A DNA stretch of 64,000 bases, from positions 4,947 through 68,946 of the forward strand of contig JAJZDN010000019.1 of assembly GCA_021805985.1 (NCBI GenBank), in the 5' to 3' direction. The notes beneath the pieces are model-generated. The model was not told where the DNA came from. It searched no databases and saw only the letters and a program-made list of their open reading frames with translations. The position numbers and the translations under genes are program-made. Positions 6,966-59,504 of this stretch are shown here, piece after piece. Numbering within the stretch: the first letter of the stretch is position 1; every line of letters begins with the position of its first letter. The DNA comes from Planctomycetota bacterium. GTDB taxonomy: Bacteria; Planctomycetota; Phycisphaerae; WQYP01.

Positions 6966-7466
6966 TCAAGGCCGCACGCGGTCGCATAATCGGGGGATAT
7001 CCCTGCGCCAGAAAATTATTGCCTGGGCGGGCAGATAATCATAAAGCAAGTGCCGCAGGTGCGCCCTGTTCTTCACGCGTTGCGGATGGCCATTTCGCGC
7101 CAGCCACCGACGTCCGTAACCATAGGTTCTTCCCAACTGAAGGCTCATGATCTGCTTGAGGGTTTGCTGAACTTTTTTCGGGGAATGCTGCGTTTGCCAC
7201 GCAACAACAATATGCAAATGTGTAGCCTGCGTTGCAACCGCATAAATCTGCCAGTCGCGGCGCTGGGCTGATTCGAGAACAGCGTAAAGAAGAATTTCCT
7301 GATCCTCCCGATGCCAGTAGACGGCGGGGAAGCGGGCAGTGCGGGTCCAATGCAACGCCAGTTTTTCTTCCGGCGCATACCGTCCACGGTTGCGCCGGTA
7401 ATAACCCTTCGGGTTGTCAGCGTTCCAGGTGAAAAAACCGTGGACAATTACATGGTAAACTGGCAT
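6966..7466 (-). CDS. REP-associated tyrosine transposase (RAYT; IS200/IS605-like Y1 HuH transposase)
   Basis: 166 aa with HuH motif (ATHLHIVVAW) and a C-terminal Tyr-containing helix (RHLLYDYLPAQ). The size and the flanking REP elements are typical of TnpA-REP. RBS GGGAGG 5 nt before the ATG. Confidence 0.7.
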   Translation of the reverse strand: MPVYHVIVHGFFTWNADNPKGYYRRNRGRYAPEEKLALHWTRTARFPAVYWHREDQEILLYAVLESAQRRDWQIYAVATQATHLHIVVAWQTQHSPKKVQQTLKQIMSLQLGRTYGYGRRWLARNGHPQRVKNRAHLRHLLYDYLPAQAIIFWRRDIPRLCDRVRP

Positions 7467-10273: not shown

Positions 10274-10853
10274 GTTAGCTTTCCTTTTTTTATGTATTCC
10301 AGAATGCTGCGCGAGACGTGAACACGTCGGGCCCAGAATATTCCGGAACATACGTTGCTTTTCTGGCTTTCATCCGTGCAACTGGCAAAAACCAATTAAA
10401 CACACGGATAAAATACCTTTGGATATCCCACTGGCCTTCATGTTTTGTAGTGTTGTGGTGCACCGCAATACTACAACGCGTGATTAAGCCGACGGAGTAT
10501 GTTGGTTCTCTCAACCTGGCTCTCTAATTACCGCGCCGCTGCCCACGCTGTCATCTCCCGATTTTCATCCGGATATCCCCTCGCGCTTTACCACCCCGGT
10601 CTGGCCAAGCCGGATGGGCCGGGCATGACCAGCACGGCGATCACGGATAGTGATCATAACAGCCAGGATCAGCGGTATCATCGAAGGAATGAATAACAAC
10701 AAAAACATGCGTCCACCGTTTCCTAAATCCCGATGCGAGATATGCCTGGCAGGCTACCGGTAGCATCGGGATGATCTCAATGAATCTATGACTCAAAGGG
10801 CTTCGACCACGGAACTATGTTTCATGCTTTTTCAGGTTCCGTGGTCATAGCGC

Positions 10854-11237
10854 CTATTGGTTACCTTGGCTGATCACGGAAATACTCGTTCGACCCGTGA
10901 CCCAGCGTCCATCACTGGTTTTGGCCGACGCCTTGATCATATATCCCCCTGGCTGTGAAGCAGAAAATCTTGCTTCTTGACCGCCCTGTGACCTGTCAGG
11001 CGTGATCGTGCCGGTGCTGGGAGATACCTTCCACATGAGACGACTACTGGTAAGATTCATCGTCGTGGCATGAACCCAGACTGTCCCACCAACCTGTACG
11101 GAATGGTGGTCTGCGTGGAGGCTGATTGCCGGAGCATCCGCGTTGGAATGGTAAGTTTGCGAACAACCTGCAACACCCAGAGCAAGTGTTCCAGCGAAGG
11201 CCGAAGCCATAACGAAACCGGGTAAACTGAACTTCAT
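10854..11237 (-). CDS. lipoprotein of unknown function
   Basis: MKFSLPGFVMASAFAGTLALGVAGC lipobox, then a ~100-aa beta-rich domain. Confidence 0.5.
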   Translation of the reverse strand: MKFSLPGFVMASAFAGTLALGVAGCSQTYHSNADAPAISLHADHHSVQVGGTVWVHATTMNLTSSRLMWKVSPSTGTITPDRSQGGQEARFSASQPGGYMIKASAKTSDGRWVTGRTSISVISQGNQ

Positions 11238-11362
11238 AACGATCTCCTGTAAGAATAAGAACCCAGAGTAAAATCTACACATAAAACATTGCCATCGTCA
11301 CCACTGGAGCATCCCGATACTGCGGGCGGCCCGGCAAAGCCGCCACCAGCCAGCCACAGATA

Positions 11363-11527
11363 TTAAAATCTTCCGGGAATCACGCCCATGAGAAGCAGCA
11401 CAATTACCACCAGAAGGATAAATCCCAGACCGCCGCTGGGGCCGTAACCCCAGGAGTTGCTGTATCCCCAAGTCGGAAGTGCGCCGATCAGCAAGAGAAC
11501 CACAATAATCAGAAGAATCAATCCCAT
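11363..11527 (-). CDS. DUF3309 family small membrane protein
   Basis: 54 aa MGLILLIIVVLLLIGALPTWGYSNSWGYGPSGGLGFILLVVIVLLLMGVIPGRF, the characteristic DUF3309 pattern. Confidence 0.6.
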   Translation of the reverse strand: MGLILLIIVVLLLIGALPTWGYSNSWGYGPSGGLGFILLVVIVLLLMGVIPGRF

Positions 11528-12363
11528 GATACAGACTCCTTTCCAGCGAGTACCGGCGGCCTTCGACTCCACTGGCACATCACATATTGATATACTCATA
11601 TCAATAGTCCAGAGAAGCATTTGAAGTGGCCCCCGCACAGTTGATAATGCAATTTACGTGCCGCGCAGATTTTTTTCCCAATCCCGCGATTTTACAAGCC
11701 CCCGGCCTAGCATAGCACAATGGATTTAGTCCTATAATTGCGACATTCTGGCGGATAACGCCAAATTGGCCCGGCCAATCCGGCGCGTATCTCCCCACGA
11801 AGTTGCCTGCGGTGTGTTAATCGGGGACAGCCAGCGGAAAGTATCATATATAAATACGCAAATAGGAACTGAGAGCATGGTACAGCTTACAGTTGGCTGG
11901 TTGCCAGCAAGCATGTATGGTTGAGCAGCAGGATTGCGGCAGCGCACTTCCGGGGAATTTACATCGGCGGAATTTGCTATTTCAGATTTCCGATACAAAA
12001 TTTAAAATGTGCAGTCTTAAGTTTCACGTTCCAGAATTCAACTCTCTTTTAGAAATACGCTGCGTTCCCCACTGCTGCGTTAAAAATGTCCCGTCCTTCC
12101 CGCCCTCATATCCGCTCTTGCGGAGGAAATAACTATTATTGCAGCCACTCATATTGGAAAACTACATCGATCAGACAATATGTCCGGGGCATTGTGTCAG
12201 ATAACGTCGTTTTGCCGCGGATTGCAGTCTGGCCTGGCCGTGAAGCACGCCAGGAAAATTCAGAACATGGGAAGCCCTCACGCTCATGTATTGCAAGGGT
12301 TTCGCGTGAATCGAAGTTCGGCATTGCGTGGATACGACGCCCCTTGGAAGAATTTCAAAACAC

Positions 12364-13705: not shown

Positions 13706-13946
13706 ATCCTGATAATTGTCACCACAATACTCGCTTTGACTATCCCATGGACGACTATAATTAACTAGCAGCCTGTGCATGGAGCGATTGCTGCGGTTCC
13801 CAATGGGTTAACTGCACAATACACATCTGGGCTACCTCCCGTTCAAGCCGAGGCTGGCTTGTGGTGTCAATGACGATGTCCAGCTTTGAATTGGGACTTC
13901 ATGTTGACAAAGGCTGCAGATGTTGGCAGCGCTTGGAGATCTACCC

Positions 13947-14648
13947 ATGAAAAATAAAACACTGGTTCTTTTAGTAGTACCGCCAAAGCGTCCAGAGCCT
14001 GGAGCGGCCCGCAGCCGCGTTAAACTTCATTCCGCGGCCAGATTTGCGGTACTTGGCGCTACAGCAGTAGAAAACACCGGTGAAACCGCGGTTCACGGTG
14101 GGGATGTAGGAACCAGTCATAGCCGGGAGATTATCGGATTTCCGCCAGGAACCGTGTCTCCGCCCCATACCACGCGCGCCGCGGATGGTGCTGCGCAGCA
14201 GGCGCACGCGGACCTCACTGCCGCTTATAGCGCTGCTGCCGCAATGCCGTCTACGCATGACCTCAGTGGGCATGACCTTGGAGGATTAACGCTGTTGCCC
14301 GGCGTTTATCGCTTTTCCTCGGCGGCTACGCTCAACGGAACTCTGACGCTTAATAATCAGGGGGACCCCAAAGCGAAATTTGTTTTTAAAATCGGTACCA
14401 CGTTGACAACGGGCAGTGACTCATCGGTCATTTCGATCAATGGCGGTCGTGGCCCGGAGACAAAAAGCGACGTGACCTGGCAGGTCGGCACCTCCGTAAA
14501 CATCGGGGCCGACAGCGCTTTTGAAGGCAATATCCTCGCCCATGACGATATCATGATGAGCGCAGATGCTTCGATTCGTGACGGCAGTGCTCTATCGGAA
14601 GGCGGAGAAGTTACGCTGGATTCCAATCAGATTACCAAAGGCTCCTAG
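13947..14648 (+). CDS. ice-binding-like (DUF3494) family secreted protein
   Basis: Signal-like N-terminus, then FAVLGATAVENTG...GDVGTS...GFPPG...LTAAYSAAA...LGGLTLLPGVYRFSSAATLNGTLTLNNQGD...VFKIG..LTTGS...WQVGTS, which matches the DUF3494 beta-helix pattern. Confidence 0.65.
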   Translation: MKNKTLVLLVVPPKRPEPGAARSRVKLHSAARFAVLGATAVENTGETAVHGGDVGTSHSREIIGFPPGTVSPPHTTRAADGAAQQAHADLTAAYSAAAAMPSTHDLSGHDLGGLTLLPGVYRFSSAATLNGTLTLNNQGDPKAKFVFKIGTTLTTGSDSSVISINGGRGPETKSDVTWQVGTSVNIGADSAFEGNILAHDDIMMSADASIRDGSALSEGGEVTLDSNQITKGS

Positions 14649-14739: not shown

Positions 14740-15624
14740 CTATCGTCCTTGTTGGAACTTACCAGGCTTTTCCCAAGCGGAGCTTTGTGCTGTGGTAGAG
14801 TTGCCGGCAAAACAATAGCCGCAGCCGTCCGCTTTAGCTTTGTACATTGCGGTATCAGCATTTTTCAATAACATTTCAGCGGTGACGCCATCACGCGGAC
14901 ACATGGCAATGCCGATGCTGGGTTTCACAATTATATTAATGTCGGCGGAGCTACCGGCTTGTGCCACCAGATCAATCATGGACTGTGCAATATTGGCAAT
15001 AACCGCGTCCTGCTGGACTTCCATCAACAGACAGAGAAACTCATCGCCTCCGGCGCGGCTCACGGTATCCTCATCGCGCACGCACGCCTGCAAACGTTGC
15101 GCGACTAAGTGCAGAACCTTGTCTCCCACATCATGCCCGCAGGTGTCATTAATGTGCTTGAACTTATCGAGATCTATGAATAACACTGCGAAGGGCCGAT
15201 CGCGGCGCTGCCCCTGGGCCAAGGCCTGATTTAAACGGTCAGTAAATAACGCTCGGTTGGCCAGACCGGTAAGTGCATCATGAAATGCCAGGAATCGGTG
15301 CTGGTCACCCAGTACCTCACTTCTTTTTAATCTTTCTTCCAAGTCTGCGCGTGCAGAAATTGCCTCGGCCACCGCGGCGCTCAATCTCTCCAGTTCTTCC
15401 GCGCAGTTACGAACGGTGGCTTCAACGCTTTCGCAGGACGAAAGTGCTTCCCGCACGCCATCGGGGGCATTGGGATTGGTGAGTCTTTCCTTGAGAGTTT
15501 GACTGGCGGTGGAAAGTTCGCGAGCACAGGCCGCCATCGCTTCCTTTATCTTTCCGCTGTTTTGCAATGTTTGAGACAAAAGAATGTCAGGCGGATGCAT
15601 AAATTGCGAAAATGCCTCGCCCAT
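14740..15624 (-). CDS. GGDEF-domain diguanylate cyclase with N-terminal coiled coil
   Basis: ALTGLANR...FIDLDKFKHINDTCGHDVGD...RAGGDEFLCLL contains the active-site GGDEF. RBS AAGGA. Confidence 0.8.
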   Translation of the reverse strand: MGEAFSQFMHPPDILLSQTLQNSGKIKEAMAACARELSTASQTLKERLTNPNAPDGVREALSSCESVEATVRNCAEELERLSAAVAEAISARADLEERLKRSEVLGDQHRFLAFHDALTGLANRALFTDRLNQALAQGQRRDRPFAVLFIDLDKFKHINDTCGHDVGDKVLHLVAQRLQACVRDEDTVSRAGGDEFLCLLMEVQQDAVIANIAQSMIDLVAQAGSSADINIIVKPSIGIAMCPRDGVTAEMLLKNADTAMYKAKADGCGYCFAGNSTTAQSSAWEKPGKFQQGR

Positions 15625-16008
15625 GAATGATCCTTAATTTCTCTCTCCATAACATTAAAAATCCATCTTCGGACATCTCTCCCCCCACCGTTCATGCAAT
15701 TTCTGTGCCGCAATGTAATTTTCTGACAAAGCAGGGTCACTGGGGCGTTCTAAAGGCCCACAATTGCGTGGACCGGACAATTTGTCCGGGGCATTTTGTC
15801 CGGTTAGGCCTTTTTGGCCTTGGTATCCTACTGGCACGATATAGCTAGATCATCGCCATTTCCCCGGAATAAGCGCAAGACGGTGTAAGCAGGTAATTCT
15901 GAAAGTGGCATGAAGTTTGCATATTCATAATTTGTTGATTGCTTGGCTTCACAGATTTCGTTCTGTGGGCGTAATTTTACCCTTATTGCCTTAACTAGGA
16001 GTTGGCAG

Positions 16009-16551
16009 ATGAAACAAGAACAAAAAACTGAGGAAATGAAAAAGTCGCAGCATGATGCGAATCGTGATCCGCTTAGCGGTGCCGCCGGTGCGCATCCCGT
16101 TGGAACCGGCGTAGGTACGGTCACGGGTGGCGTTATTGGTGGTGTAGCCGCCGGTGCTGCCATTGGCACGGTAGCCGGTCCAGTGGGCACACTGGTAGGT
16201 GGGGCCGCGGGTGCCGTTATCGGTGGCGTGGCAGGGGGGCTGGCCGGTAAAGCGGTGGCTGAGAATATTGATCCAACCGTTGAACATGGCTATTGGCGTG
16301 AAAGCTATACGGCGCGGCCTTATATCACCAAAGGTGTAACCTATGATGAATACGCCCCCGCGTATCAATATGGCTGGGAATCCCAAGCGCAGTATCACGG
16401 TCGCAGCTTCGAGGAAAGTGAACCCATGCTGTCGCGTGACTGGCCAGCGCACCGGGGAAAATCCAATTTGACGTGGGAGCAAGCCAAACATGCCGTCCGT
16501 GATTCCTGGCAGCGTGTCGATCACCGAAAACCCCGCATGGAAAAAAAGTAA
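16009..16551 (+). CDS. glycine-zipper-containing protein of unknown function
   Basis: After a charged N-terminus, a long GxxxG-type run (GAAGAHPVGTGVGTVTGGVIGGVAAGAAIGTVAGPVGTLVGGAAGAVIGGVAGGLAG), then a YxxY/W-rich tail. RBS AGGAG upstream of ATG 16009. Confidence 0.5.
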   Translation: MKQEQKTEEMKKSQHDANRDPLSGAAGAHPVGTGVGTVTGGVIGGVAAGAAIGTVAGPVGTLVGGAAGAVIGGVAGGLAGKAVAENIDPTVEHGYWRESYTARPYITKGVTYDEYAPAYQYGWESQAQYHGRSFEESEPMLSRDWPAHRGKSNLTWEQAKHAVRDSWQRVDHRKPRMEKK

Positions 16552-16640
16552 AGTGGATAGTGGGTTAGTGGGGAAAAGTGGTCAGTGGGGCGCGTGAAGT
16601 GGGACGCGTAGAGTGGGGCATCCCAATAGGGGGCTTAGTG

Positions 16641-16692
16641 TGCAGCGGGGACGTTTCTGCCGACAGGCCGGAACGTCCCCGTTTCGCGTTTT
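16641..16692 (+). terminator. stem-loop terminator candidate
   Basis: cggggacgtt ... aacgtccccg 10-bp stem followed by tttcgcgtttt. Confidence 0.4.
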
Positions 16693-16722
16693 ATACACAT
16701 TTAAAATAGGAGTAATAATTTA

Positions 16723-17217
16723 ATGGCAACGAATTCATCCGTAACGGAAAAAAATAAACCCAAGGTGGGGCGCAAAGATCTTATCAATCTGCTCAACGAA
16801 GACTTGGCCCGTGAATACCAGGCGATAATCGCCTATGTGGTTTATTCCCAGGTTATCAATGGGGCACAGTACATGAATATCGCCGACGAACTGGAAGTTC
16901 ATGCCGCCGAAGAGCTTTCCCATGCCATTATCCTGGCGAATCAAATTGACTATCTTGGCGGAATGCCGACGGTAACCCCTAAGCCGGTCAAGACTTCCGA
17001 TAAGGCGGAGGATATGCTGCGTTTTGATTTGGATAATGAAAATGAAACGATCCGCAATTATCGCCAGCGTGTCCAACAATGCGAAGAAATTGGCGAATAC
17101 GCGCTGGCCGAACATCTGCGTAAGATATTGATGCAGGAACAGGACCACCAGATCGCCCTGGCCACAGCACTGGGCGTAGACATCCCCGACGTAACCCATA
17201 CAGATCAACGCGCATAA
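16723..17217 (+). CDS. ferritin-like / bacterioferritin-like di-iron protein
   Basis: LINLLNEDLAREYQAIIAYVVYSQVINGAQYM...ELEVHAAEELSHAIILANQIDYLGG resembles the Bfr helices and iron ligands (E...ExxH). RBS AGGAG. Confidence 0.6.
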   Translation: MATNSSVTEKNKPKVGRKDLINLLNEDLAREYQAIIAYVVYSQVINGAQYMNIADELEVHAAEELSHAIILANQIDYLGGMPTVTPKPVKTSDKAEDMLRFDLDNENETIRNYRQRVQQCEEIGEYALAEHLRKILMQEQDHQIALATALGVDIPDVTHTDQRA

Positions 17218-17223
17218 ATAGCT

Positions 17224-17640
17224 GCATGAGCACCGGATGATTAATCCGGTGGTTGATCCAATGCCACCGGGGCGGACGGGGTTACGGGTTACAGGGGACA
17301 GGGGACGCAATGAATGAGTAATGAGTAGAAGCTGGGGAACGATGGGGATATCACCGGAGCACCGGATGGTAATCCGGTGGTTGATCCAGTGCCGCCAACC
17401 ACCACCAAGTTATCAGAACGGCGCTCTATGACACGCTGCACCCTCCGTGAGCACCGGATGGTAATCCGGTGGTTGATCCAGTGCCGCCAACCCACCACCG
17501 GGTTATCACCACGGTGCTCGATGACACGCTGCGCCCTCCGTGAGCACCGGATGGTAATCCGGTGGTTGATCCAATGCCGCCAACCCACCACCGGGTTATC
17601 ACCACGGTGCTCCATGACACGCTGCGCCAGTCGCGACAGG
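17224..17640. repeat. MITE-like palindromic elements: one partial copy plus three tandem 93-bp units (gagcaccggatggtaatccggtgg...ccaccgggttatcaccacggtgctc)
   Basis: Each unit has ~24-bp terminal inverted repeats with an internal caccggat/atccggtg hairpin. The same ends recur at 28773, 31083 and 59325. Confidence 0.75.
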
Positions 17641-17818
17641 CGGACCCACAACTGTGTCATCACGCTATATTCCGCGATCAACCCAACGCTGCCGCGCTGG
17701 GCCAATGGACGGAAATTGGTAGATCGCTATTTCTGCAGCCACGTTGGCGCTCCCGGGAACGGTTAGCTGATATTTCACTCATTGCTGGGCACACAGACTT
17801 TAATAGAAAGATTTTTTC

Positions 17819-18052
17819 ATGGGCAACATACCGCACAATCATCAGCACGAACGCCAGGAACATGAGAAAAAACTTCAGCACCGCGAAATCGACGCATCCG
17901 TTCCTTATTGGAAAAGAGCCCACCGTGACTGGCGATTTTGGGTCGCACTATTATTGATGTTGGGAGCAATGGCGGCCTATCTGTTTACAGATGATGAAGC
18001 CTTTCGATCCAGCGGGCCTCCGCAACGCCCGGTTCCGGCGCTGGGCGGTTAA
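17819..18052 (+). CDS. hypothetical small membrane protein
   Basis: 77-aa ORF, His/Glu-rich N-terminus then one TM (FWVALLLMLGAMAAYLF). No clear RBS. Confidence 0.25.
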   Translation: MGNIPHNHQHERQEHEKKLQHREIDASVPYWKRAHRDWRFWVALLLMLGAMAAYLFTDDEAFRSSGPPQRPVPALGG

Positions 18053-18118
18053 TACTTGCCCACGCCCGAAAATTAAGATTGATGGGCCGCAATCGCAACT
18101 GCGGCGGAGGATGTGGTA

Positions 18119-18266
18119 GTGGTATCAGCCATGGCGGTCTTTGGAATTTTGATGGCACCAGTACCCCTTATGATGGTGCTGGGTTTATTGGCCGCGACCA
18201 TCGTGATGGTGTTCCTGCTGGATGCTGTTAAAAAGCCGTTAATGCGTCGTCTCGTAAGTACATGAG
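18119..18266 (+). CDS. hypothetical small hydrophobic peptide immediately upstream of the ClC gene (GTG start)
   Basis: GGAGG 8 nt before GTG 18119; 48 aa with one TM and a basic tail (..VMVFLLDAVKKPLMRRLVST). Below the ORF-track size cutoff. Confidence 0.25.
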
Positions 18267-18275
18267 AAAACATTA

Positions 18276-19967
18276 ATGAAGACAATGCCATTTATACAAC
18301 CCAATGATTCATCGGGCTACGTGGTATTGAATTTGTCACCGAGATTCTGGCTGCTGGTTGTGTTCACCGGTATCGGTGCCGGACTGGGGGCGTCGTTGCT
18401 GATGGCATTGCTGGCGGTGGTGCAGCATTGGTCTTATTCCTACAATTCGGGTGATTTTCAGAGTGCCGTAGAACTGGTGTCACCTTGGCGGCATGTCTGG
18501 ATAATGGCGGCTGCTGGTCTGTTGGCAACCGTTGTGGTCTGGCTGTTGAAGCACTATTGGCCGGGAAAGGATAGTGACGTTCCTAAATCGATTTGGTTCA
18601 GGTCCGGCCACTTGCCCGTCGTTCGCACGATCATCGATGCCGCACTATCGATGACCCTTGTTGGCATGGGCGAATCGCTGGGGCGGGAAGGGGCACCTAA
18701 GCAATTGGGTGCCGCCGTTGCCAGTGTACTTTCCCGTTGGGCTAAATTGGAACCAGCGGAGAAGCGATTTCTAGTCGCGTGCGGAGCCGGCGCGGGTATG
18801 GGCGCTGTCTATAATGTGCCGCTCGGTGGTGCCCTGTTTGCACTTGAGATATTGCTGGGAACTCTGGCATTGCCGCTGATTCTTCCCGCGTTAACAGCTT
18901 CCTTCGTGGCCACTGTGGTTTCCTGGCTAACGCTGACCAACCATGCGACTTATCTGGTGCCCAATTATACTTTTACAGCCGGCCAACTGGTCTGGGCGCT
19001 GGCCTTCGGCCCAATGGCTGGCATTGCATCCGTCTTATTTGTACGTTTGATTATTTGGGCGGATGGGCATAAACCGCAGCGCGGCTGGGCCAGGATGGCA
19101 CCGCTTTGGATGTTTACACTGTTGGGATGTGTCGCTATTGCATTTCCGCAGCTATTGGGCAATGGGAAGGACGTCACCGAATTAACATTTACCAATAAAC
19201 TGGGCCTGCCGCTGCTGCTGATTCTGATTTTCCTCAAACCACTGGCCACCGCCGGTTGCCTGGGTAGCGGCGCGCCAGGTGGTCTGTTTACACCCAGCAT
19301 TACCATCGGAGCCGTATTCGGCGGATGTTTTGGCCGCCTCTGGTCGCTTATCTGGCCAGGTGCAACGCCGGGGAGTTATGCCGTCATTGGCGCCGGCGCG
19401 GTGTTGGCTGCAACAACGCAAGCCCCGGTTTCTTCAATTGTGCTGCTGCTTGAGCTTACGCATCATACGCTGGGTATTTTCGTGCCGATTTTGTCAGCAG
19501 CGGTCGGCGCGGGGCTAACGGCACGGCTCTTGGATCGACGGTCGGTGTACTCCGGTCCGGCTGACACGATTCGTCCGGCGATAAAAATGCCGCCTGAGAA
19601 CCTGGAGATTTCATATAAAGCGAGCATCCGTTCAAATATTGAAGTCATTTCAATATCTACCGGTTACCGAACCATTTTGCGGCGGTTTCTGAATTCCGAC
19701 CACGTGCCGAAAATTCTTTACGTCCTGGACGAAAAAGGCGTTTTTGTCGGTCGTATTCTACTGCCGGATGTGGTTGCGTGCCGCCCATTGGCCCGCGTTC
19801 TGGATACCGGCGCGGCGGCTGATATGGTAACACCCGTGAGTTGCCTGCTTCCGCAAATGACTCAGGCTGATGTACAACGCCAAGTGGATTGTGAGCCAAC
19901 GGGAGAACTTCCGGTTCTCGATACCCCGGGCGGCCATCTATGCGGTGTGGTCAGGCGAAATGTATAA
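18276..19967 (+). CDS. ClC-family chloride channel / H+-Cl- antiporter with C-terminal CBS pair
   Basis: 563 aa. The GESLGREGAPKQLGAAV selectivity-filter motif (GREGx), multiple TM helices and a C-terminal soluble ~130 aa consistent with CBS domains. Confidence 0.85.
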   Translation: MKTMPFIQPNDSSGYVVLNLSPRFWLLVVFTGIGAGLGASLLMALLAVVQHWSYSYNSGDFQSAVELVSPWRHVWIMAAAGLLATVVVWLLKHYWPGKDSDVPKSIWFRSGHLPVVRTIIDAALSMTLVGMGESLGREGAPKQLGAAVASVLSRWAKLEPAEKRFLVACGAGAGMGAVYNVPLGGALFALEILLGTLALPLILPALTASFVATVVSWLTLTNHATYLVPNYTFTAGQLVWALAFGPMAGIASVLFVRLIIWADGHKPQRGWARMAPLWMFTLLGCVAIAFPQLLGNGKDVTELTFTNKLGLPLLLILIFLKPLATAGCLGSGAPGGLFTPSITIGAVFGGCFGRLWSLIWPGATPGSYAVIGAGAVLAATTQAPVSSIVLLLELTHHTLGIFVPILSAAVGAGLTARLLDRRSVYSGPADTIRPAIKMPPENLEISYKASIRSNIEVISISTGYRTILRRFLNSDHVPKILYVLDEKGVFVGRILLPDVVACRPLARVLDTGAAADMVTPVSCLLPQMTQADVQRQVDCEPTGELPVLDTPGGHLCGVVRRNV

Positions 19968-20469
19968 AAGCGGGTGTGCCGCATTTTCCTTGTCGCACGC
20001 GGGATAGCGGATGTCGGCCGCCAAGTGGACTTTCAATGACGGCCACGCGGCGGCACCGATCGATGTTTTGTTGGCCGCGATAGCAGCATCCGCTTTACCA
20101 TTTCCTGCGCACGTTCGGGGCCAACGGGTTTTCTATTACGTCGAAGACGTCATTATGAATCGCCACATGTTGACTGCTATTGCAGCTTGCGGAGATGCAC
20201 CACGATGTCATATAAATTTTGATTCGTCAGGTTGGCATTACCGCCGAAGGGCGGCATGGCAATGTGCCGGTGATTGGTGGGATTTATAGCGGAGCGACCA
20301 TGCTTGATAACCGTTCACTTTCTGGATATTTGCATAGCCACTGCGACCAGTAGTACAACTACCAGCACGCCCATCACCATCCCCAGCCATGTTCCGCTGC
20401 CCATCCAGGGCATTATCGTATTGCTTGCATGATTCATCATAATTAAGGTCCTTTCATGACCGGCCAACT

Positions 20470-23298
20470 TTAGTTATTCAATGGCATTGCGCCTCGGCTG
20501 GTGGTTGGGCCGGTGCCCGGGTTGCCGCCCGGTGCTGGATGGGTGCTGGGCGGATTCAGGGTGCTGCCGGACGTCCCGCCCGTTGCAGAAATTGTGCTCT
20601 GGCCATGGGACTTGGCTTTGTTGCCCATCATGCCGCCTGGGGCGGAAGATTTGCCTTGGCCACTTCCGGCACTGGCGGCTGTATTGCCCACGTCGCCATT
20701 GCCACCTTGGCCGCTTGTGGAATTACCCGCTGTGCCGCCCGGGGGAGTTGCGCCTGGGCCATTTCCCGTATTACCCGCTGCGCCCGCAGTGCCGCCTGGT
20801 GTGGAAGCTGATCCTTGGCCAGCTGCGGAGTTGCCGGCGGCAGCGCCGTTTGTTCCGGCGGACGTGCCCTGGTTACTATCCGAATCCTCCCCCTTATTGC
20901 CATTGCTGGCCGTTCCCCTTTGGTCCTTATCAGAACCAGCAGCCGCACCACTTGGAGGGGTGGCACCCTGGCCATTTCCGGAATTGCCGGTTGAGCCAAC
21001 GGCTGCGCCCGGCGTGGAAGATGGGCCTTGAGCATTGGGGGAATCGCCCGTTGAATTGCGTTGTTGTGAATTTCCACTTTGGTCATTTTTAGAATTACCC
21101 TTCATGCCACCACTGCCTGACGTCCCGGTTTGATTGTTTCCGGAATTTGCTGCTGTGCTACCTTGTCCGGCAGTACCACTTTGGCTGCTTCCAGAATTAC
21201 CCGATGCGCCCGCTGTCCCCGAATTGCCGCTTTGAGCATTGCCCGAATCACCGCCAACTGCGGTCTGCTGGTCAACTGACATTAAAAGTGCCGATTGGCC
21301 GCCGGGAGTGCCAGCTCCGCCTTGAACGCTCGTGGAATTACGCATCATTCCGGCTGTGCCGGTAGATGGGCCGTGACCAGTCTTGGCATGGCCTGGCATG
21401 CCAGTTGTCCCGGAATTTCCATTTCTCCCCGATGCGTTGTTACCACCAGTGTTGGAACTTCCGCTTTGGCCGGCCGCGGAATTACCTGTGCCGGAATTTC
21501 CGCTTTGGCCCGCTGCAGAATTACCACCGGTGCCGGCGGCTCCGCCTTGACCGGCAGCGGAGTTACCAGCAGAACCGGAGTTCCCACTTTGGCTATTTTT
21601 AGAATTACTCTTCATGCCACCACTACCTGATTTGCCGTTTTGATTGTTTCCGGAATTCCCGGCTGTGCTGCCCTGTCCGGCAGTACCACTTTGGCCATTT
21701 TTAGAATTACCCTTCATGCCACCAGTACCTGAGGTCCCGTTTTGGTTGTTTCCAGAATTTCCGGCTGTGCTACCTTGTCCCCCAGTACCACTTTGGCTGG
21801 CTCCGGAATTTCCGGCCATGCCGCCCGCTCCACTTTGGCTGTTTCCAGAATTATTCGCTGCACCATTTGCCCCAGGAGTTGCACCTTGGGCAATTCCTGA
21901 ATTGCGCCCCGCACCGCCGGCAGTGGTTTGCTGGTCAACCGACATTAAAAGTACGCCTTGGCCACCTGCTGTTGAGCCGCCGCTTTGCCCGGCTGCAGAA
22001 AAATTACCTGTTGTGCCACCGGTGCCGGAAGTTCCGCTTTGACCCGCTGCAGAATTACCACCGGTGCCGGCGGCTCCGCCTTGACCGGCGGTGGAGTTAC
22101 CAGCAGAACCGGAATTTCCACTTTGGCCATTTTTAGAATTACCCTTCATGCCACCAGTACCTGAGGTCCCGTCTTGGTTGTTTCCAGAATTTCCGGCTGT
22201 GCTACCTTGTCCCGCAGTTCCGCTTTGGCTGCTTCCAGAATTACCCGATGCGCCCGCTGTCCCCGAATTGCCGCTTTGAGCATTGCCGGAGCCGCTGCCC
22301 GCACCGCCGGCTGCGGTCTGCTGGTCAACCGACATTAGAAGGATCGATTGGCCACCTGGTGTTGAGCCGCCGCTTTGCCCGGCTGTAGAAGAATTACCTG
22401 TCGTGCCACCGGTGCCAGCGGCTCCGCCTTGACCGGCGGCGGAGTTACCAGCAGAACCGGATGTTCCACTTCGGCTATTTTTAGAATTACCCTTCATGCC
22501 ACCACTACCTGATGTCCCGTTTTGGTTGGTTCCGGAATTCCCGGCTGTGCTACCCTGCCCGGCAGTTCCGCTTTGGCTGCTTCCAGAATTACCCGATGCA
22601 CCCGCTGTCCCTGAATTGCCGCTTTGAGCATTGCCGGAAGTGCCCCCGTTGCCACCAGCTGCGCTCTGCTGATCAATCGACATTAAAAGTGCAACGCGTC
22701 CACCTGGCGTCGAGTTTCCGTTTTGCCCCGCTGTGGAGCTACCTGTGCCTGAATTTCCGCTTTGGCCTCCTGCGGAATTACCACCGCTGCCGGAATTACC
22801 CGCTGTGCCAGATGATCCACCCGTGCCAGAAGATGATCCTTGGCCACTTCCCGAGTTACCTGCGGTACTGCCGGCCCCCGAAGTCCCGCTCTGACCCGCT
22901 CCAGAATTGCCCGCTGTGGTGCCTGTCCCCGAAGATGTCCCTTGACCGTTTCCGGATTTACCCATCATGCCACCTGTGCCGGCGGCTCCGCTTTGGCCTC
23001 CTGCGGAATTACCCATTGTGCCGCTTTGGCCATTGCCCATCGTGCCGCCTGTACCGGCAGCGGCCCCTTGACCGGTTGTGGAATTGGTCAAGTTTGGTGT
23101 TGTGTCCGCCGAACCTCTGTTCTGCACATCGCGCACAACCTTATTTTTATCCGAGCGTATTTTTGCTTGGTTCATACTCATCGTAAGATGGGAATTATTG
23201 TTGCCGCTGGCACCCGACACGCGAAACCATCCGCGATCGAACCCCACGACAACCAGAACAAGTACCAGTAAAACCAACAATGTAGATATGATTTTCAT
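20470..23298 (-). CDS. secreted/anchored low-complexity Gly/Ser/Thr/Asn/Gln-rich repeat protein (~940 aa)
   Basis: Start set at ATG 23298 (MKIISTLLVLLVLVLVVVGF signal/anchor) with RBS AAGAGGA. The body is almost entirely G/S/T/N/A/Q with at least four ~120-aa tandem repeats marked by LLMS[VI]DQQ[TS]AAGG. The DNA shows matching tandem repeats between 21270 and 22700. Confidence 0.6.
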   Translation of the reverse strand: MKIISTLLVLLVLVLVVVGFDRGWFRVSGASGNNNSHLTMSMNQAKIRSDKNKVVRDVQNRGSADTTPNLTNSTTGQGAAAGTGGTMGNGQSGTMGNSAGGQSGAAGTGGMMGKSGNGQGTSSGTGTTAGNSGAGQSGTSGAGSTAGNSGSGQGSSSGTGGSSGTAGNSGSGGNSAGGQSGNSGTGSSTAGQNGNSTPGGRVALLMSIDQQSAAGGNGGTSGNAQSGNSGTAGASGNSGSSQSGTAGQGSTAGNSGTNQNGTSGSGGMKGNSKNSRSGTSGSAGNSAAGQGGAAGTGGTTGNSSTAGQSGGSTPGGQSILLMSVDQQTAAGGAGSGSGNAQSGNSGTAGASGNSGSSQSGTAGQGSTAGNSGNNQDGTSGTGGMKGNSKNGQSGNSGSAGNSTAGQGGAAGTGGNSAAGQSGTSGTGGTTGNFSAAGQSGGSTAGGQGVLLMSVDQQTTAGGAGRNSGIAQGATPGANGAANNSGNSQSGAGGMAGNSGASQSGTGGQGSTAGNSGNNQNGTSGTGGMKGNSKNGQSGTAGQGSTAGNSGNNQNGKSGSGGMKSNSKNSQSGNSGSAGNSAAGQGGAAGTGGNSAAGQSGNSGTGNSAAGQSGSSNTGGNNASGRNGNSGTTGMPGHAKTGHGPSTGTAGMMRNSTSVQGGAGTPGGQSALLMSVDQQTAVGGDSGNAQSGNSGTAGASGNSGSSQSGTAGQGSTAANSGNNQTGTSGSGGMKGNSKNDQSGNSQQRNSTGDSPNAQGPSSTPGAAVGSTGNSGNGQGATPPSGAAAGSDKDQRGTASNGNKGEDSDSNQGTSAGTNGAAAGNSAAGQGSASTPGGTAGAAGNTGNGPGATPPGGTAGNSTSGQGGNGDVGNTAASAGSGQGKSSAPGGMMGNKAKSHGQSTISATGGTSGSTLNPPSTHPAPGGNPGTGPTTSRGAMPLNN

Positions 23299-23993
23299 AA
23301 TATTCCTCTTATGTTTCAGCCGCCAAAGGTGACACAAACAAACATCACCTAACTTTCTACCCTTGCAATTCCCATGCCCGGAGAATAATTTGGCCAACTT
23401 TCGTTCGCAGGGCACATGCTGGCACGGCGATCGCGCACTTATCCGCCAACCTGTCGGTGTCAGGGTGTCTGATTGGGCCTTAATGCCGCGACATACCACG
23501 TATTTCACATCTTCGGCACGACGAGACGCTTGGATTATTTCTTTCTGATCAACGGCCCCTTCTTTACGTGGGTCACTAAGACAATAATCCGCCAGGCGGC
23601 ATGATTCCTAAACGAAGGCGCTTGCACGCATCATCGTGTAATTGCATACGTTACAGATGATTTCGCATGTACGGCTTCCGCACAGCGCCCCGTGCGCGGG
23701 ACTGCAACTCATGCAAAGGCGGTAATGTAACTTCAATGCCGCATGGCCTGGGAAACCGTTACAGACACTACCTGTTATTAGCTCTGGTACGGCGTTTGCT
23801 AACTTTATTATGCGGTTAGTGAATGTCTGGAGTCATAGATTCGGAGAAAGAAGAATGACTTTAAGGATTCTATAAAACGAAGAAACCCTACCGGGAGGAA
23901 ATCTATTGTGCCTGACCTGCGTAAGGTGTTGCACAGCGAACTTGCCGGAGCAAAGTAGTAGGAAAAAACCATTAATTTTTAGGAGTACGTATT

Positions 23994-24257: not shown

Positions 24258-24309
24258 GAGCCTGTCCGCGTAATAGCCGTCGCAACCCGGCCATTACGCG
24301 GACAGGCTC
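24258..24309. other. 17-bp-stem perfect hairpin (gagcctgtccgcgtaat / attacgcggacaggctc)
   Basis: Read directly; 18-nt loop. Lies 50 bp after the DUF3185 stop and is followed by degenerate REP motifs at 24330-24525. Confidence 0.5.
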
Positions 24310-24797
24310 TTAGATCCCCCGGCGGACCGCATTCATCCTCGGCGCCTCCGCATCGAGCTACGTATTTGCCGTTAGCTGATGCGGAAGCGTCGCGGTAGGA
24401 TGCGGTTCGTTATACTGATTACCGATGCTGCATCGATCTGGATGGCCGCATCGGTCCCGACGCATGAGATCTCTGTATCATCAAACCATATTCCGCCTCT
24501 AACCCAACGCTGCCGCATTGGGCTGGGGGCGATCGTCAGGCTTGGGCATCGAATATAGCGGCGGAAAATAACTGGACCTTTCATCGTCACGCAGAATTGC
24601 AAAACACGAATACGTCTTTCTGGTATGCACTTGGCATGACCGCCCACTTGTTGTGCCCGCCTCATCGCCATGGTCCCCAACTTGAGTCATCAACTTAGCG
24701 CATCACCTTCCGGCATATCTTGGGGCTTACCTTGGGGCCTTGGCAAGGATGCCTTTGCGTGCGATAATCCTTTCTGAAAATTGAACCCGCACTGGAG

Positions 24798-25103
24798 TTG
24801 CATGTGATTATCGCAAAAATTGTCGGCACGGTTGTCGCAACCGTCAAAGATGCCGGTTTCGACGGCAAAAAACTGGTCTTAGCGCATGCTCATGTCCTCA
24901 AAGACGGACAACTTGTGCCGGGGCAGACGGTGCTGGTGGCCAATGATGATCTCGGTGCCGGAGAAGGGGAATTCGTGGTCCTTACGCAGGGCAGTTCCGC
25001 CCGTATGACCTCGAGTATGAAAAGCACCTCCACGGATGCTGTGGTCATCGCGTTAATAGATCGTATCGATGCCAACGGCCAACTGGTTTTTAAACGCAGC
25101 TGA
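24798..25103 (+). CDS. BMC vertex (pentamer) protein, EutN/CcmL/PduN family, paralog 1
   Basis: MHVIIAKIVGTVVATVKDAGFDGKKLVLAHAHVL...DDLGAGEGEFVVLTQGSSAR...DAVVIALIDRID aligns by eye with E. coli EutN (GAGTGEWVLLVSGSSARQA...VDLCVIGIVDEV). RBS GGAG 5 nt upstream. Confidence 0.8.
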   Translation: MHVIIAKIVGTVVATVKDAGFDGKKLVLAHAHVLKDGQLVPGQTVLVANDDLGAGEGEFVVLTQGSSARMTSSMKSTSTDAVVIALIDRIDANGQLVFKRS

Positions 25104-25143
25104 AATAATGTGTCCGCCTGGCGCGGTCCTCTTGAGGTTCTGT

Positions 25144-25422
25144 ATGTTTATTGCCATGGTTAAAGGCACGGTAACCGCCACCAAAAAGCACCCCTCCATG
25201 GCTGGTGCCCGGCTTTTAATTGTCCAGCCCATTGACGCGATGAGTGGTCAGCCCAACGGGTTTCCGCAAATTGCCGCTGATGTGCTGGGGGCGGCGAAAG
25301 GTATGCGGGTACTGGTGGTAAGTGATGGCCGGGGCGTGCAGGATATGCTCAAAACCGATCACCATTGCCCCCTGCGGCTAGGTATCATGGCCTTAATTGA
25401 TCCGCCCGCGGGCGGCAGGTAA
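25144..25422 (+). CDS. BMC vertex protein, EutN/CcmL family, paralog 2
   Basis: MFIAMVKGTVTATKKHPSMAGARLLIVQPID...ADVLGAAKGMRVLVVSDGRG...LGIMALIDP has the same fold signature. Start chosen at ATG 25144 after GAGG. Confidence 0.7.
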   Translation: MFIAMVKGTVTATKKHPSMAGARLLIVQPIDAMSGQPNGFPQIAADVLGAAKGMRVLVVSDGRGVQDMLKTDHHCPLRLGIMALIDPPAGGR

Positions 25423-25460
25423 CGCAGCAGCTGACGCCCGGCAGTATTTTGGAATAACGT

Positions 25461-25727
25461 ATGTATTTAGGTAAAGTCATTGGTCGAATTGAAGCTCGCA
25501 TTCGGCTTCCAGGCTTGGAAACCCAGCGCCTTGTATTGCTTGAGCCGTTAGATTTTAATCAACAACCCATTCGCTGGACTATCCTGGCGGTAGATGTCAC
25601 GGGTGCTTCGGAGGGGGCGCTGGTGGTATATGAAGAGGGGCGCGAGGCGGCCAATCCATTTGATCCACCGCTGGCAGTCGATGCCTGCATCGTGGCGATT
25701 GTCGATGATTATCAATACCAGGCTTGA
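25461..25727 (+). CDS. BMC vertex protein, EutN/CcmL family, paralog 3
   Basis: MYLGKVIGRIEARIRLPGLETQRLVLLEPLD...VDVTGASEGALVVYEEGREAA...DACIVAIVDD. Confidence 0.7.
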   Translation: MYLGKVIGRIEARIRLPGLETQRLVLLEPLDFNQQPIRWTILAVDVTGASEGALVVYEEGREAANPFDPPLAVDACIVAIVDDYQYQA

Positions 25728-25742
25728 GACATCGGAGTCGGC

Positions 25743-26717
25743 ATGGGGTCCATATTCGCTGTTTTTCAAATTATGCGCGTTGCTCTGGCGTTCACGGCGG
25801 TGGCGGACGTCTGGACGCTGATGCTTCTCAAAATTCCCGGACAAAAACCCATCAACGACCCAATCGCTGAATTTGCCCTGGCGGCCTTGGCGTCGTTTTT
25901 CCTTTACACCTTCGGCATGGCTCTTAATGATCTGCTGGACTCGCGCCGCGATCGTCTTTTTGCCCCCTGGCGGCCCATTCCCAGCGGACGGCTTAGTGTG
26001 CCGGCGGTCATTGTACTAAGTTTGGTGCTGATGCTCTTAGGTTTATTTTCCGCAACGTTGTTATCCTGGTTTGAACCCCTGCACTTTCCCGTCGCTTTGA
26101 TGCTGGCTATGACCGTCAGCCTGATGATTGTTTTTTATAACGCCACGGGGAAATATCTCGGATACATCGGCTTTATTGCTCTAGGCCTGATTCGCGGCGT
26201 GAACTGCCTGATTGGTCGGCCCAATGCGGGATTTTTAATTTTATCGTTGTTTCTCTTTACCCACATCGCCGTGGGTACCGCTATATCCTACCGTCTGGAA
26301 TCCAAACGTCCGCGGCTGCGAATTGCCGGCATCTGGAAACTCTTAGGCTCGGTTGCCTTGATCGATGCCGTCGCAATTTTAATCATGCTGCTGCGCGGCA
26401 GTATCACACGCAGCGTGCTTATGGACGCCTTGGGGCCGGCCGTGGTGGCTGTGATTTACTTCAGTTGGGTCGGGCGACAAATATTTAATCATCATGAAGC
26501 ACCGAGAAAACGCGGTGAGCGCATCATGCTGGTGGGGTTATTTACCCTCTTCGCCTATGACGCTTCTCTGTTGGCCGCTAACGGGGCGTTTCATGGAATG
26601 GCAATAATATTGGCGCTGGCGGTTGTATCCTGCATCGCGTTCTGGGTCATGCGACTGGCCGGAAAAGGTCTCACGGTTGGCCGCCCACGCTACCGTATTC
26701 GCGCCGGGCGCTCATGA
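25743..26717 (+). CDS. UbiA-family membrane prenyltransferase
   Basis: 324 aa with ~8 TM helices and the NDLLDSRRD motif (NDxxDxxxD, the Asp-rich prenyl-diphosphate site of UbiA enzymes). It starts 16 nt after paralog 3. RBS GGAGT. Confidence 0.6.
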   Translation: MGSIFAVFQIMRVALAFTAVADVWTLMLLKIPGQKPINDPIAEFALAALASFFLYTFGMALNDLLDSRRDRLFAPWRPIPSGRLSVPAVIVLSLVLMLLGLFSATLLSWFEPLHFPVALMLAMTVSLMIVFYNATGKYLGYIGFIALGLIRGVNCLIGRPNAGFLILSLFLFTHIAVGTAISYRLESKRPRLRIAGIWKLLGSVALIDAVAILIMLLRGSITRSVLMDALGPAVVAVIYFSWVGRQIFNHHEAPRKRGERIMLVGLFTLFAYDASLLAANGAFHGMAIILALAVVSCIAFWVMRLAGKGLTVGRPRYRIRAGRS

Positions 26718-41423: not shown

Positions 41424-42392
41424 ATGCTGTACGACCGAATGAACCGGAGTATCGGATACCTGCGATTATCCATCACACAGGCTTGCCAATTGCGCTGCAT
41501 CTATTGTCGGCCCGCGCTCCACCAAAATCATACCGACGGCATGTTGACACCTGCGGAATTCGGGCAGATCGCGCATCACTTCATCCTCCACCATGGGGTG
41601 CAGAAAATTCGCATTACCGGCGGTGATCCAACCGCCCGTGGGGATTTGCCGGAAATAATTGGAACAATTGCCACAGGGCATTCGGATATTGACCTGGCGA
41701 TGAGCACCAACGGTTTGGCATTGGGCCGCCTGGCGGCTACCTGCAAAGCCTCCGGCTTAAAACGTGTGAATATCAGCATGGACACGCTGGATGAATCAAC
41801 ATTTGAACGTTTAAGCGGCCGGCGCGGCGTTGGTCAGGTCATTGCCGGCATTGATGCCGCGATTGCCGCAAACCTCGCCCCGGTAAAACTCAATATGGTG
41901 GTAATGCGCGGCATCAATGACGGGCAATTGGCATCCATGGTCGATTTCGCGGCACAGCGAAACATAACACTCCGTTTTATTGAACTTATGCCCATGGGAC
42001 CCCTGGCACCGAATTGGCATCAGCATTACGCACCGGCGGCCAGCATCCGCAGAAGCCTCGAGCCTCTGACGCTCTCTTGGCGACCCCTCGAGCAGGGTGC
42101 AGAAAGCAGCCGGAATTTTCGCGTCGTGCTGCGCGATGGAAGAGAAGTATCGCTGGGTTTTATCACCCCGATGAGTTGCAATTTCTGCGGCAACTGCAAT
42201 CGCCTGCGCATTTCCTGCACCGGCGATATTTTTCCTTGTCTGATGAACCGGCCGCGCGGAACGCTTCTGCCCGCGCTGCGGCCGAAATATGACCCGTTGC
42301 GTTTTGACGCACTTCTGGCGGAGGCGTTGGCGGCAAAAGAGGCGGAACATCCGCACGATGGCTTTGCAGTGATGACCAGTATTGGAGGCTAA
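41424..42392 (+). CDS. moaA: GTP 3',8-cyclase MoaA (radical SAM)
   Basis: YLRLSITQACQLRCIYCRP (CxxxCxxC) and a C-terminal second cluster motif. Confidence 0.9.
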   Translation: MLYDRMNRSIGYLRLSITQACQLRCIYCRPALHQNHTDGMLTPAEFGQIAHHFILHHGVQKIRITGGDPTARGDLPEIIGTIATGHSDIDLAMSTNGLALGRLAATCKASGLKRVNISMDTLDESTFERLSGRRGVGQVIAGIDAAIAANLAPVKLNMVVMRGINDGQLASMVDFAAQRNITLRFIELMPMGPLAPNWHQHYAPAASIRRSLEPLTLSWRPLEQGAESSRNFRVVLRDGREVSLGFITPMSCNFCGNCNRLRISCTGDIFPCLMNRPRGTLLPALRPKYDPLRFDALLAEALAAKEAEHPHDGFAVMTSIGG

Positions 42393-42508
42393 TTCATGGG
42401 GCACCCCGCGGGTAACCACACGACCGCATTCAAAAACATTACAGGCGGGGGATTAATGCGCGACCCCTGCCCTGAGTATGAGGCCAGAGTTGGAAAGCGT
42501 GAATACCT

Positions 42509-42757
42509 ATGAAATTGACCGTACAGCTCTTTGGATCGGCGGCCGAACTGGCCAACCGGACGCGGCTAGTGGTGGAAGTGTGTGATAAAACCGTGACTTG
42601 CACACGCTTGCGTACTGTCATCGTTCAATATTGTCCGCAGATTGAGAACCTTATGCCGTCTGCGCGGCTGGCGATAAATTGTTCCTATGTCGCGGAGGAT
42701 ACGCTCGTGTCGGATCAAGATGAAATCGCGCTAATTCAGGCGGTGGGGGGCGGATGA
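42509..42757 (+). CDS. moaD: molybdopterin synthase sulfur-carrier subunit MoaD
   Basis: 82 aa, ubiquitin-like, ends in GGG. Confidence 0.7.
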   Translation: MKLTVQLFGSAAELANRTRLVVEVCDKTVTCTRLRTVIVQYCPQIENLMPSARLAINCSYVAEDTLVSDQDEIALIQAVGGG

Positions 42758-43167
42758 GCGTGACTGTTGAATTTTGTGACGGCCCGGTCGTTGTGCGTCG
42801 GCCTCGGCCTGAACCAGTCGTTGGAGCAGTGGTGATGTTCGAAGGCATTGTGCGGGCGGAAGAAAATGGCCGGCGGATTGTCGCCTTGGATTATCGCACG
42901 TATGACCCCATGGCGGAACGGGAGTTAAAACGCCTTGCGGATTCCGCAGTCAGCGCATTCGATTTGGCCATGCTGCTGGTGCTGCATAGTCGCGGATTGG
43001 TGCCGGAGGGGAATTGTTCCTTTCTGTTGGTGACGGCGGCCAAGAATCGCAAACCCGCGCTGCTGGCGATGGATTGGTTTATCGATGCGCTTAAACGCGA
43101 TGTGCCGATCTGGAAATACCCTGTGTGGGCAACTGAAATGAACACTGCGATGGGAGTTGGATCATGA
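42754..43167 (+). CDS. moaE: molybdopterin synthase catalytic subunit MoaE
   Basis: VGAVVMFEGIVR...LVLHSRGLVPEG...AAKNRKPALLAMDWFIDALKRDVPIWK. ATGA coupling to moaD. Confidence 0.85.
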   Translation: MSVTVEFCDGPVVVRRPRPEPVVGAVVMFEGIVRAEENGRRIVALDYRTYDPMAERELKRLADSAVSAFDLAMLLVLHSRGLVPEGNCSFLLVTAAKNRKPALLAMDWFIDALKRDVPIWKYPVWATEMNTAMGVGS

Positions 43168-48057: not shown

Positions 48058-48440
48058 TTAATTATTCCCCGCTGATAGACATTGTCACGGGCCTCCGTGC
48101 CGCCACATTGTCATTCTAGTATTCCGCAAGCGCCAAAGGAAAATGAAATTTGTGCCCACAGATGCCGCCGAATGTAACGACACTGCATGTCGTAAGGAAA
48201 AGGCTTGGCAACCCCGCGGCAAAATAAGTAATGAACTACTTGCGAATGCCGCAGAGACGCCAAGTCAGACCACTTCCAATTGAAGAATACCGCCCATGGC
48301 CCAATTTCTCGCTCCGAAATTGACTTATCGCGGGATCCGGGAATATACTGAATCGAAGAACAGTAAAATATGTTCTTCATCAAGAAGAAGCGGGGAATCA
48401 CGAGCCATCAGTAGTGTCACATGCCTATGTGGAGGTCTGT

Positions 48441-59465: not shown

Positions 59466-59504
59466 CCGGGGCAGACCGCGTTCGCCTTCCATCTGCACTG
59501 CGGT

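Follow-up and report, generated by a model that had tools for sequence, protein, structure and literature searches.

A PVM-type triplet of microcompartment pentamer genes condensed into a free-standing cassette in a Phycisphaerae lineage, probably a satellite locus with an incidental UbiA-family neighbour

We analyzed a stretch of 64,000 nt (hereafter, the window) from a Planctomycetota bacterium assigned to the Phycisphaerae (GenBank assembly GCA_021805985.1, contig JAJZDN010000019.1, positions 4,947 to 68,946 of the forward strand). Four co-directional genes on its plus strand are the subject of this work: three consecutive genes for pentameric shell proteins (BMC-P) of bacterial microcompartments (BMCs), followed by a gene of the UbiA family. 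Our preferred reading, to which we give a probability of about 0.65, is that the three BMC-P genes are a satellite triplet of a dispersed or fragmented microcompartment derived from the Planctomycetes/Verrucomicrobia type (PVM), and that the UbiA gene is an incidental neighbour. The initial annotation of this DNA had mentioned a satellite locus with a mis-associated neighbour as an alternative to a new pentamer-prenyltransferase arrangement, and this alternative is the one that the evidence favours. What is new here is a Phycisphaerae lineage in which a PVM-like triplet is condensed into a free-standing, strongly conserved cassette.

The first gene (24804-25103, +) encodes a 99-aa protein of the "standard pentamer" type (PvmH class) with the motifs GAGEGE and GSSAR. 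The second (25144-25422, +) encodes a 92-aa "special pentamer 1" of the grey clade (PvmK class) with the motifs KHPSxxGxRLL and SDGRGVQDML, and the third (25461-25727, +) an 88-aa "special pentamer 2" of the orange/yellow clade (PvmM class) with the motif EEGREAANPFDPPLxVDA. Two of these boundaries deserve comment. The start of gene 1 had been placed at TTG 24798; we moved it to GTG 24804, which has a GGAG sequence 6 nt upstream and agrees with the 99-aa orthologs and with public gene calls. For gene 2, the start is 25144 rather than position 25069 of a longer open reading frame (ORF).

That the three consecutive genes carry the EutN/CcmL signature, as the initial annotation stated, is borne out by the profile search, in which all three products were recovered by PF03319 (EutN_CcmL) with 71, 75.9 and 61.5 bits for genes 1, 2 and 3, respectively (E = 1e-19, 4e-21 and 1e-16; gathering score, 25). 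At the sequence level, the three also match BMC-P chains of solved structure, including 5V74, 6OWF, 2HD3, CcmL and EutN. The shell BMC-P of Haliangium ochraceum (5V74) is the top PDB sequence match for gene 1 (E = 3e-13) and gene 3, and it ranks second for gene 2. H. ochraceum differs in that it belongs to another phylum and has hexameric (BMC-H) and trimeric (BMC-T) shell proteins and an aldehyde dehydrogenase (AldDh) in a recognizable main locus. The fold was modelled for gene 2, for which an AlphaFold (AF2) monomer model with a mean predicted local confidence (pLDDT) of 87 and a predicted template modelling score (pTM) of 0.77 was obtained. All 46 PDB matches of this model at E ≤ 1e-3 were BMC-P subunits, with a template modelling (TM) score of approximately 0.75; for genes 1 and 3, the fold is supported by the sequence matches to solved BMC-P chains. 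The three proteins score under the NCBIfam equivalog cut-offs for CcmL, EutN and CsoS4, and thus none of them is a specific ortholog of these proteins. They contain no membrane-anchoring segments and resemble ordinary BMC-P; they would be expected to assemble into pentamers and to occupy shell vertices.

To place the genes among known BMC-P, we built a neighbor-joining tree from 64 non-redundant triplets, taken from 70 loci with a complete triad. In this tree, each gene position forms its own clade, which holds a monophyletic Phycisphaerae lineage together with the BMC-P found at the same position of PVM-layout loci. Identity between the lineage and the PVM-layout loci is 46, 40 and 34% for genes 1, 2 and 3, respectively, versus 27-29% between the paralogs, a value that points to an old triplication and not to a recent tandem duplication. 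The class motifs VTQGSSAR, KHPS..G.RLL with SDGR, and EG.EAA.PF..P.DA are common to the lineage and the PVM proteins. We take positions 1, 2 and 3 to be PvmH, PvmK and PvmM, respectively, on the basis of gene order and of the Planctopirus locus. In the classification of Sutter et al. (2021, PMC8217296), PvmH is a standard pentamer, PvmK belongs to "special pentamer 1" (greys), and PvmM belongs to "special pentamer 2" (yellows). Taken together, the position-wise clades, the shared motifs and these classes indicate that the genes are a PvmH/PvmK/PvmM-class triplet, with one member in each of the standard, grey and orange/yellow classes, from which the intervening genes have been deleted. Judging from these comparisons, a 1:1:1 orthology links the three genes to the BMC-P genes that stand first, second and third in PVM-type loci, and their 5′-3′ order is preserved. 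The earlier description of the triad as a PVM-style pentamer triplet therefore stands, since each gene clusters with its same-position counterpart.

The layout of the cassette differs from that of a PVM locus in two respects. The comparison loci, which share at most 49% identity with the lineage, have the order BMC-H, BMC-H, approximately 1.4 kb, P1, approximately 1.5 kb, P2, approximately 1 kb, P3. Loci retrieved with a PVM-type BMC-H were annotated as DeoR, phosphotransacylase (PTAC), BMC-H, BMC-H, acetate kinase, BMC-P, AldDh, BMC-P, a 288-aa gene, BMC-P and class II aldolase. Thus, AldDh and the 288-aa gene separate the BMC-P genes of a PVM locus, whereas those of the cassette are contiguous. 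Additionally, the two BMC-H genes and the genes for PTAC, acetate kinase, class II aldolase and DeoR that flank the PVM triplet are found neither in the window nor in the flanks of its relatives.

The cassette is not confined to this assembly. Identical genes are present on ENA metagenome contigs, and near-identical genes are present in metagenome-assembled genomes (MAGs) labelled Phycisphaerae, Phycisphaerales or Planctomycetota. An alignment scan of species-representative genomes with gene 2 yielded 19 loci in 18 MAGs, and a scan of Joint Genome Institute (JGI) metagenomes with gene 1 yielded 12 further loci with 70-92% identity; in the metagenome scan, identity falls abruptly from 70% to 49% or less. 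Some of the triad proteins are available under NCBI accessions NNM84544.1, NNM87321.1, MGC8552640.1, MGC8625213.1 and MDA8375500.1. The order of the triad is identical in all of the approximately 30 loci of the lineage, with spacers that do not exceed 117 nt and, in a few cases, an overlap of 1-7 nt between adjacent genes. Pairwise ratios of nonsynonymous to synonymous substitution rates (dN/dS) range from 0.02 to 0.19 for gene 1, from 0.03 to 0.34 for gene 2 and from 0.04 to 0.21 for gene 3, at dS values reaching more than 1. These values show strong purifying selection on all three genes; together with the conserved order and spacing, this indicates that the cassette is functional and is inherited as a unit.

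These observations bear on the idea that the triad is a decaying remnant of a deleted PVM locus, as the loss of the PVM genes between and around the BMC-P genes might suggest. The ORFs are intact in approximately 30 loci, the sole irregularity being a second ORF that is four codons shorter in one locus (L022), and gene order and spacing have been kept across deep divergence. With the dN/dS values given above (0.02-0.34 overall, at dS up to more than 1), we rejected the pseudogene idea, and we consider a remnant extremely improbable.

The surroundings of the cassette are variable. It occurs in at least six unrelated neighbourhoods, mostly of housekeeping genes, and the neighbours change with the sublineage: they include Bac_transf (a polyprenyl-phosphate sugar transferase), GT1, 6PGD, DHODH, PNPase, S12/S7 ribosomal genes and genes of unknown function. 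In one sublineage (L011, positions 10684-11936, and also L025, L026, L028 and L029), two conserved genes, for 117-aa and 299-aa proteins without Pfam matches, lie downstream of the cassette on its own strand, and a PTPS/QueD-like gene comes next; the 117-aa and 299-aa genes could be sublineage-specific partners of the cassette. We also considered a shared theme of lipid-linked envelope metabolism (UbiA, Bac_transf and GT1) among the neighbours, which we rejected, since other sublineages adjoin 6PGD, DHODH, PNPase or ribosomal genes.

The initial annotation reported no BMC-H or BMC-T, aldolase or aldehyde dehydrogenase genes in the 64 kb, and our searches agree. No BMC-H was found in the window by tblastn with four queries (PduA, CcmK2, EutM and the H. 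ochraceum hexamer), and a BMC-H hidden Markov model (HMM) run against all six reading frames of the window gave nothing at E ≤ 1. A Pfam survey of essentially all the larger genes of the window revealed no PF00936, PF00171, PF00596 or PF06130, and the Pfam annotation of the window is free of aldehyde dehydrogenase, class II aldolase, PTAC and DeoC. The same holds for the relatives: none of the PVM partners (BMC-H, class II aldolase, AldDh, PTAC and acetate kinase) occurs in the window or within 10 kb on either side of approximately 30 related loci, and no related locus has a BMC-H within 10 kb; for the window itself, the flanks checked extend 25 kb upstream and 38 kb downstream of the cassette. 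A rightward extension through the 122.8-kb contig of a close relative revealed no BMC genes, and the leftward extension consists of a 3.9-kb contig only. The locus therefore holds a single shell protein family, PF03319, with no PF00936, and the window and its flanks do not show the combination of BMC-H, BMC-P, class II aldolase, AldDh, PTAC and acetate kinase that characterizes a PVM main locus.

Loci of this kind have precedents. Axen et al. (2014, PMC4207490) defined satellite loci as those with only PF03319 or only PF00936 genes, complemented by a locus elsewhere. Sutter et al. (2021, PMC8217296) described the types FRAG1-8, in which the shell genes are scattered over as many as six places, mostly apart from any enzymes, and which have a BMC-P triplet in common; FRAG2, FRAG5 and FRAG8 include Planctomycetes, and in FRAG7 and some FRAG6, the triplet stands alone at one site. 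The isolated BMC-P triplet is thus an arrangement already described, and in this respect the novelty claimed in the initial annotation does not hold. The cassette resembles the FRAG types in being a stand-alone triplet with neighbours unrelated to BMC enzymes. It differs from them in that their third member comes from the "green" clade, whereas the closest sampled relatives of the standard member here are PvmH-like. FRAG or satellite status also requires BMC-H elsewhere in the genome, while the cassette is known from its own locus and flanks. In the part of the entry list of the 2021 BMC-P tree available to us, the Phycisphaerae cassette lineage is not among the entries, and the only Phycisphaer* entries there are PVM main-locus proteins.

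An alternative is that the triplet is independent of any shell: the lineage would have lost BMC-H and the PVM enzymes and retained the BMC-P, for example as a hetero- or homo-pentameric scaffold or cap. The loss of BMC loci within the Phycisphaerae is documented: PVM loci are present in cultured members of the class (order Tepidisphaerales), with the exception of one isolate, from which they have been lost. The detachment of the cassette from all BMC genes in every sublineage, the strong purifying selection on all three genes and the long branch that separates the lineage from the PVM proteins would also fit this explanation. Nevertheless, the lack of nearby BMC-H is equally described for FRAG-type BMCs, which have their BMC-H elsewhere, and in the literature that we searched, we found no report of an organism with BMC-P and without BMC-H. 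The interface motifs speak to both sides. In solved shells, the GAGxGE-type motif contacts BMC-H, and its last position pairs with an arginine of the hexamer. The canonical interface motifs of gene 1, GAGEGE/D and GSSAR, are invariant across the lineage, which argues against independence from a shell, while the last residue of the GAGxGE-type motif is non-acidic in genes 2 and 3, and for gene 2 this would favour it. On balance, we regard a shell-independent triplet as rather unlikely.

Several observations nevertheless weigh against a satellite triplet of PVM origin. Long branches, at 34-46% identity, separate the lineage versions of the three proteins from the PVM proteins. The outgroup loci were retrieved by a motif that PvmH also has; hence, "PVM-derived" denotes the nearest relationship within this sample of loci. 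The non-acidic residue at the last GAGxGE position of gene 2 is replaced by D in the four PVM-type second-position sequences examined. No BMC-H was found in approximately 650 kb (partly redundant) of the window and the related loci, nor in a 10-kb extension past the window; this covers little of each genome and therefore neither supports nor excludes BMC-H elsewhere, and a fragmented BMC would look alike. Finally, when proteins were searched with the consensus of PVM BMC-H, the best 120 of 7,996 matches were all canonical PVM hexamers with at least 86% identity to the query, among which a hexamer of the lineage itself, if there is one, did not stand out. One hit of the BMC-H search was traced to its contigs, where it sits in full PVM loci of unrelated assemblies.

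Under the satellite-triplet explanation that we prefer, a PVM-type locus in an uncultured Phycisphaerae lineage would have lost the genes between its BMC-P genes, namely, those for the aldehyde dehydrogenase and the protein of approximately 288 codons. The three BMC-P genes would now form a tight unit under a promoter of their own, apart from the genes for BMC-H and the enzymes. This unit would supply vertex and cap subunits to a shell whose hexamers and cargo enzymes would be encoded elsewhere in the genome. In one subclade, a UbiA gene would have landed directly 3′ of the cassette, and in the window, it is probably read through from the cassette promoter, with no functional link to the pentamers that is conserved.

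The gene at 25743-26717 (+) encodes a 324-aa integral-membrane, prenyltransferase-like protein of the UbiA superfamily and starts 15 nt past gene 3, one less than the 16-nt gap originally given. Its product matches PF01040 with 44.8 bits (cut-off, 34.2) and has the multi-pass membrane architecture of the superfamily. The first Asp-rich motif, NDxxDxxxD, is present as LNDLLDSRRD; the form LNDLLDxRRDR is invariant, and all of 14 homologs have residues N62, D63, D66 and D70, which confirms the assignment to the UbiA-family membrane prenyltransferases made from the motif in the initial annotation. No second Asp-rich motif (DxxxD) is conserved among the homologs aligned, which show one invariant Asp (D273) and the invariant motif KRPRL instead, and so the catalytic competence of the protein is uncertain. 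Across the subfamily (46 proteins found, P0001-P0046), the invariant KRPRL is preceded by LE/Q and lies where the second Asp-rich motif is expected. The best NCBIfam match is EboC (NF035940), with 89.7 bits against an equivalog cut-off of 250, and no NCBIfam equivalog cut-off is reached; among PDB sequences, the protein is closest to chlorophyll a synthase and DGGGP synthase. The protein thus shares PF01040, NDxxDxxxD and the membrane architecture with these members of the superfamily, but it differs from them in lying far under every equivalog cut-off and in having KRPRL instead of the second Asp-rich motif.

The initial annotation had treated the adjacency of this gene to the pentamer genes as a possibly meaningful fusion and had asked whether it is conserved in relatives. 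In a tree of the concatenated triad, UbiA lies directly 3′ of the cassette (gap, 15-38 nt) in one subclade only, formed by the window (L001/2), L016-L022 and L035. One locus nested inside this subclade, L043, has no UbiA gene beside the cassette, and at least eight other sublineages have the cassette without UbiA. None of the UbiA homologs at 34-51% identity adjoins EutN genes. In six contexts of distant homologs, a PKD-domain protein of approximately 685 aa lies downstream in three and PfkB lies upstream in two. In MAG GCA_021790475.1, the triad is on contig JAJYDU010000045.1, while JAJYDU010000003.1 carries the closest UbiA homolog, preceded by unrelated genes. The restriction to one subclade, the other partners elsewhere and the separate contigs indicate that the adjacency is a subclade-specific rearrangement. 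It does not support a pentamer-prenyltransferase machine, and UbiA is most likely an incidental and recent neighbour. In another MAG, ZJ5.bin40, there are two different cassette-plus-UbiA loci, L018 (JAKBCC010000015.1) and L019 (JAKBCC010000050.1), which encode proteins 83-95% identical to those of the window; either the bin mixes strains or the locus is duplicated.

In the window, the arrangement of the four genes is compatible with a single transcription unit. A strong inverted repeat (24258-24309, +; 22-nt arms with 95% complementarity and an 8-nt loop) lies between the upstream DUF3185 gene and the cassette and is probably the end of the upstream transcription unit. A promoter-like site, TTGGCA-17 nt-GATAAT with a TG extension (24740-24768, +), is located approximately 35 nt 5′ of gene 1. 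It was identified by its match to the consensus only, with a score of 10/12, and as the region has no more such sites than expected from shuffling, it is weak evidence. Together with the 15-nt junction between gene 3 and UbiA, the hairpin and the promoter-like site make a unit of three BMC-P genes and UbiA plausible here, and in this window, UbiA is probably cotranscribed with the cassette. No regulatory RNA was identified 5′ of the cassette with Rfam, whose only match is a tRNA elsewhere in the window.

Another possible reading is that the genes of the window's subclade form a functional pentamer-prenyltransferase module, for example, a pentameric cap or channel at a membrane prenyltransferase. 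Such a module would agree with the 15-nt gap free of a terminator, with the single promoter-like site 5′ of gene 1 and with the persistence of the adjacency, mostly with the same 15-nt gap, down to 75% UbiA identity and at dS above 1; two other sublineages also have an envelope-glycan enzyme (Bac_transf or GT1) upstream on the same strand. Set against this are the confinement of the adjacency to a single subclade and its lack in L043, the retention of the cassette without UbiA in the other sublineages, the different partners of UbiA homologs, the location of the genes on separate contigs in GCA_021790475.1 and the lack of membrane-anchoring segments in the three BMC-P proteins. We consider such a module quite improbable, and we retain the satellite triplet with an incidental UbiA neighbour.

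Other features of the window lie apart from the cassette. The gene at 20470-23508 (-) encodes a protein of approximately 940-1012 aa with no Pfam match, in which an N-terminal transmembrane helix is followed by a low-complexity body rich in G, S, N, T and A; the body contains long internal repeats (periods of 102 and 348 nt) with a recurring LLMSVDQQTAAGG motif between them. A single ORF at 48414-50048 (+) combines a cytochrome b561-type domain (Ni_hydr_CYTB) with an Oxidored_molyb domain and resembles an MsrQ-MsrP fusion. Beside it, at 41424-45363 and 45458-48057, are a molybdenum-cofactor biosynthesis cluster and a molybdate-type ABC transporter with a fused permease/ATPase. An ice-binding-like protein (PF11999, 169 bits) is encoded at 13920-14648 (+), adjacent to the gene of a GGDEF diguanylate cyclase. 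An AbiEii-type nucleotidyltransferase toxin gene (5690-6370, -) and an IS200-like Y1 transposase gene (6966-7466, -) suggest a small mobile or defence patch. At the place corresponding to approximately position 59500 of the window, a close relative (L115, DAICIG010000028.1, positions 15167-20618) has an island encoding an integrase, a D12 methyltransferase, HTH_17 and DUF5131 that is missing from the window and is a strain-specific integrated element; the relative and the window have an identical 481-aa protein in common.

With UbiA as an unrelated neighbour, no new pentamer-prenyltransferase system need be proposed. The value of the locus for microcompartment biology is modest and lies in the presence of three PVM-type pentamer paralogs as one free-standing unit. 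Sutter et al. (2021, PMC8217296) raised the question of why many BMCs have three pentamer genes if 12 pentamers cap the shell. The lineage described here is a convenient test case for roles of the "special" pentamers other than vertex capping. If it were true that the lineage has discarded BMC-H and the cargo enzymes, BMC-P triplets would have a function that needs no shell.

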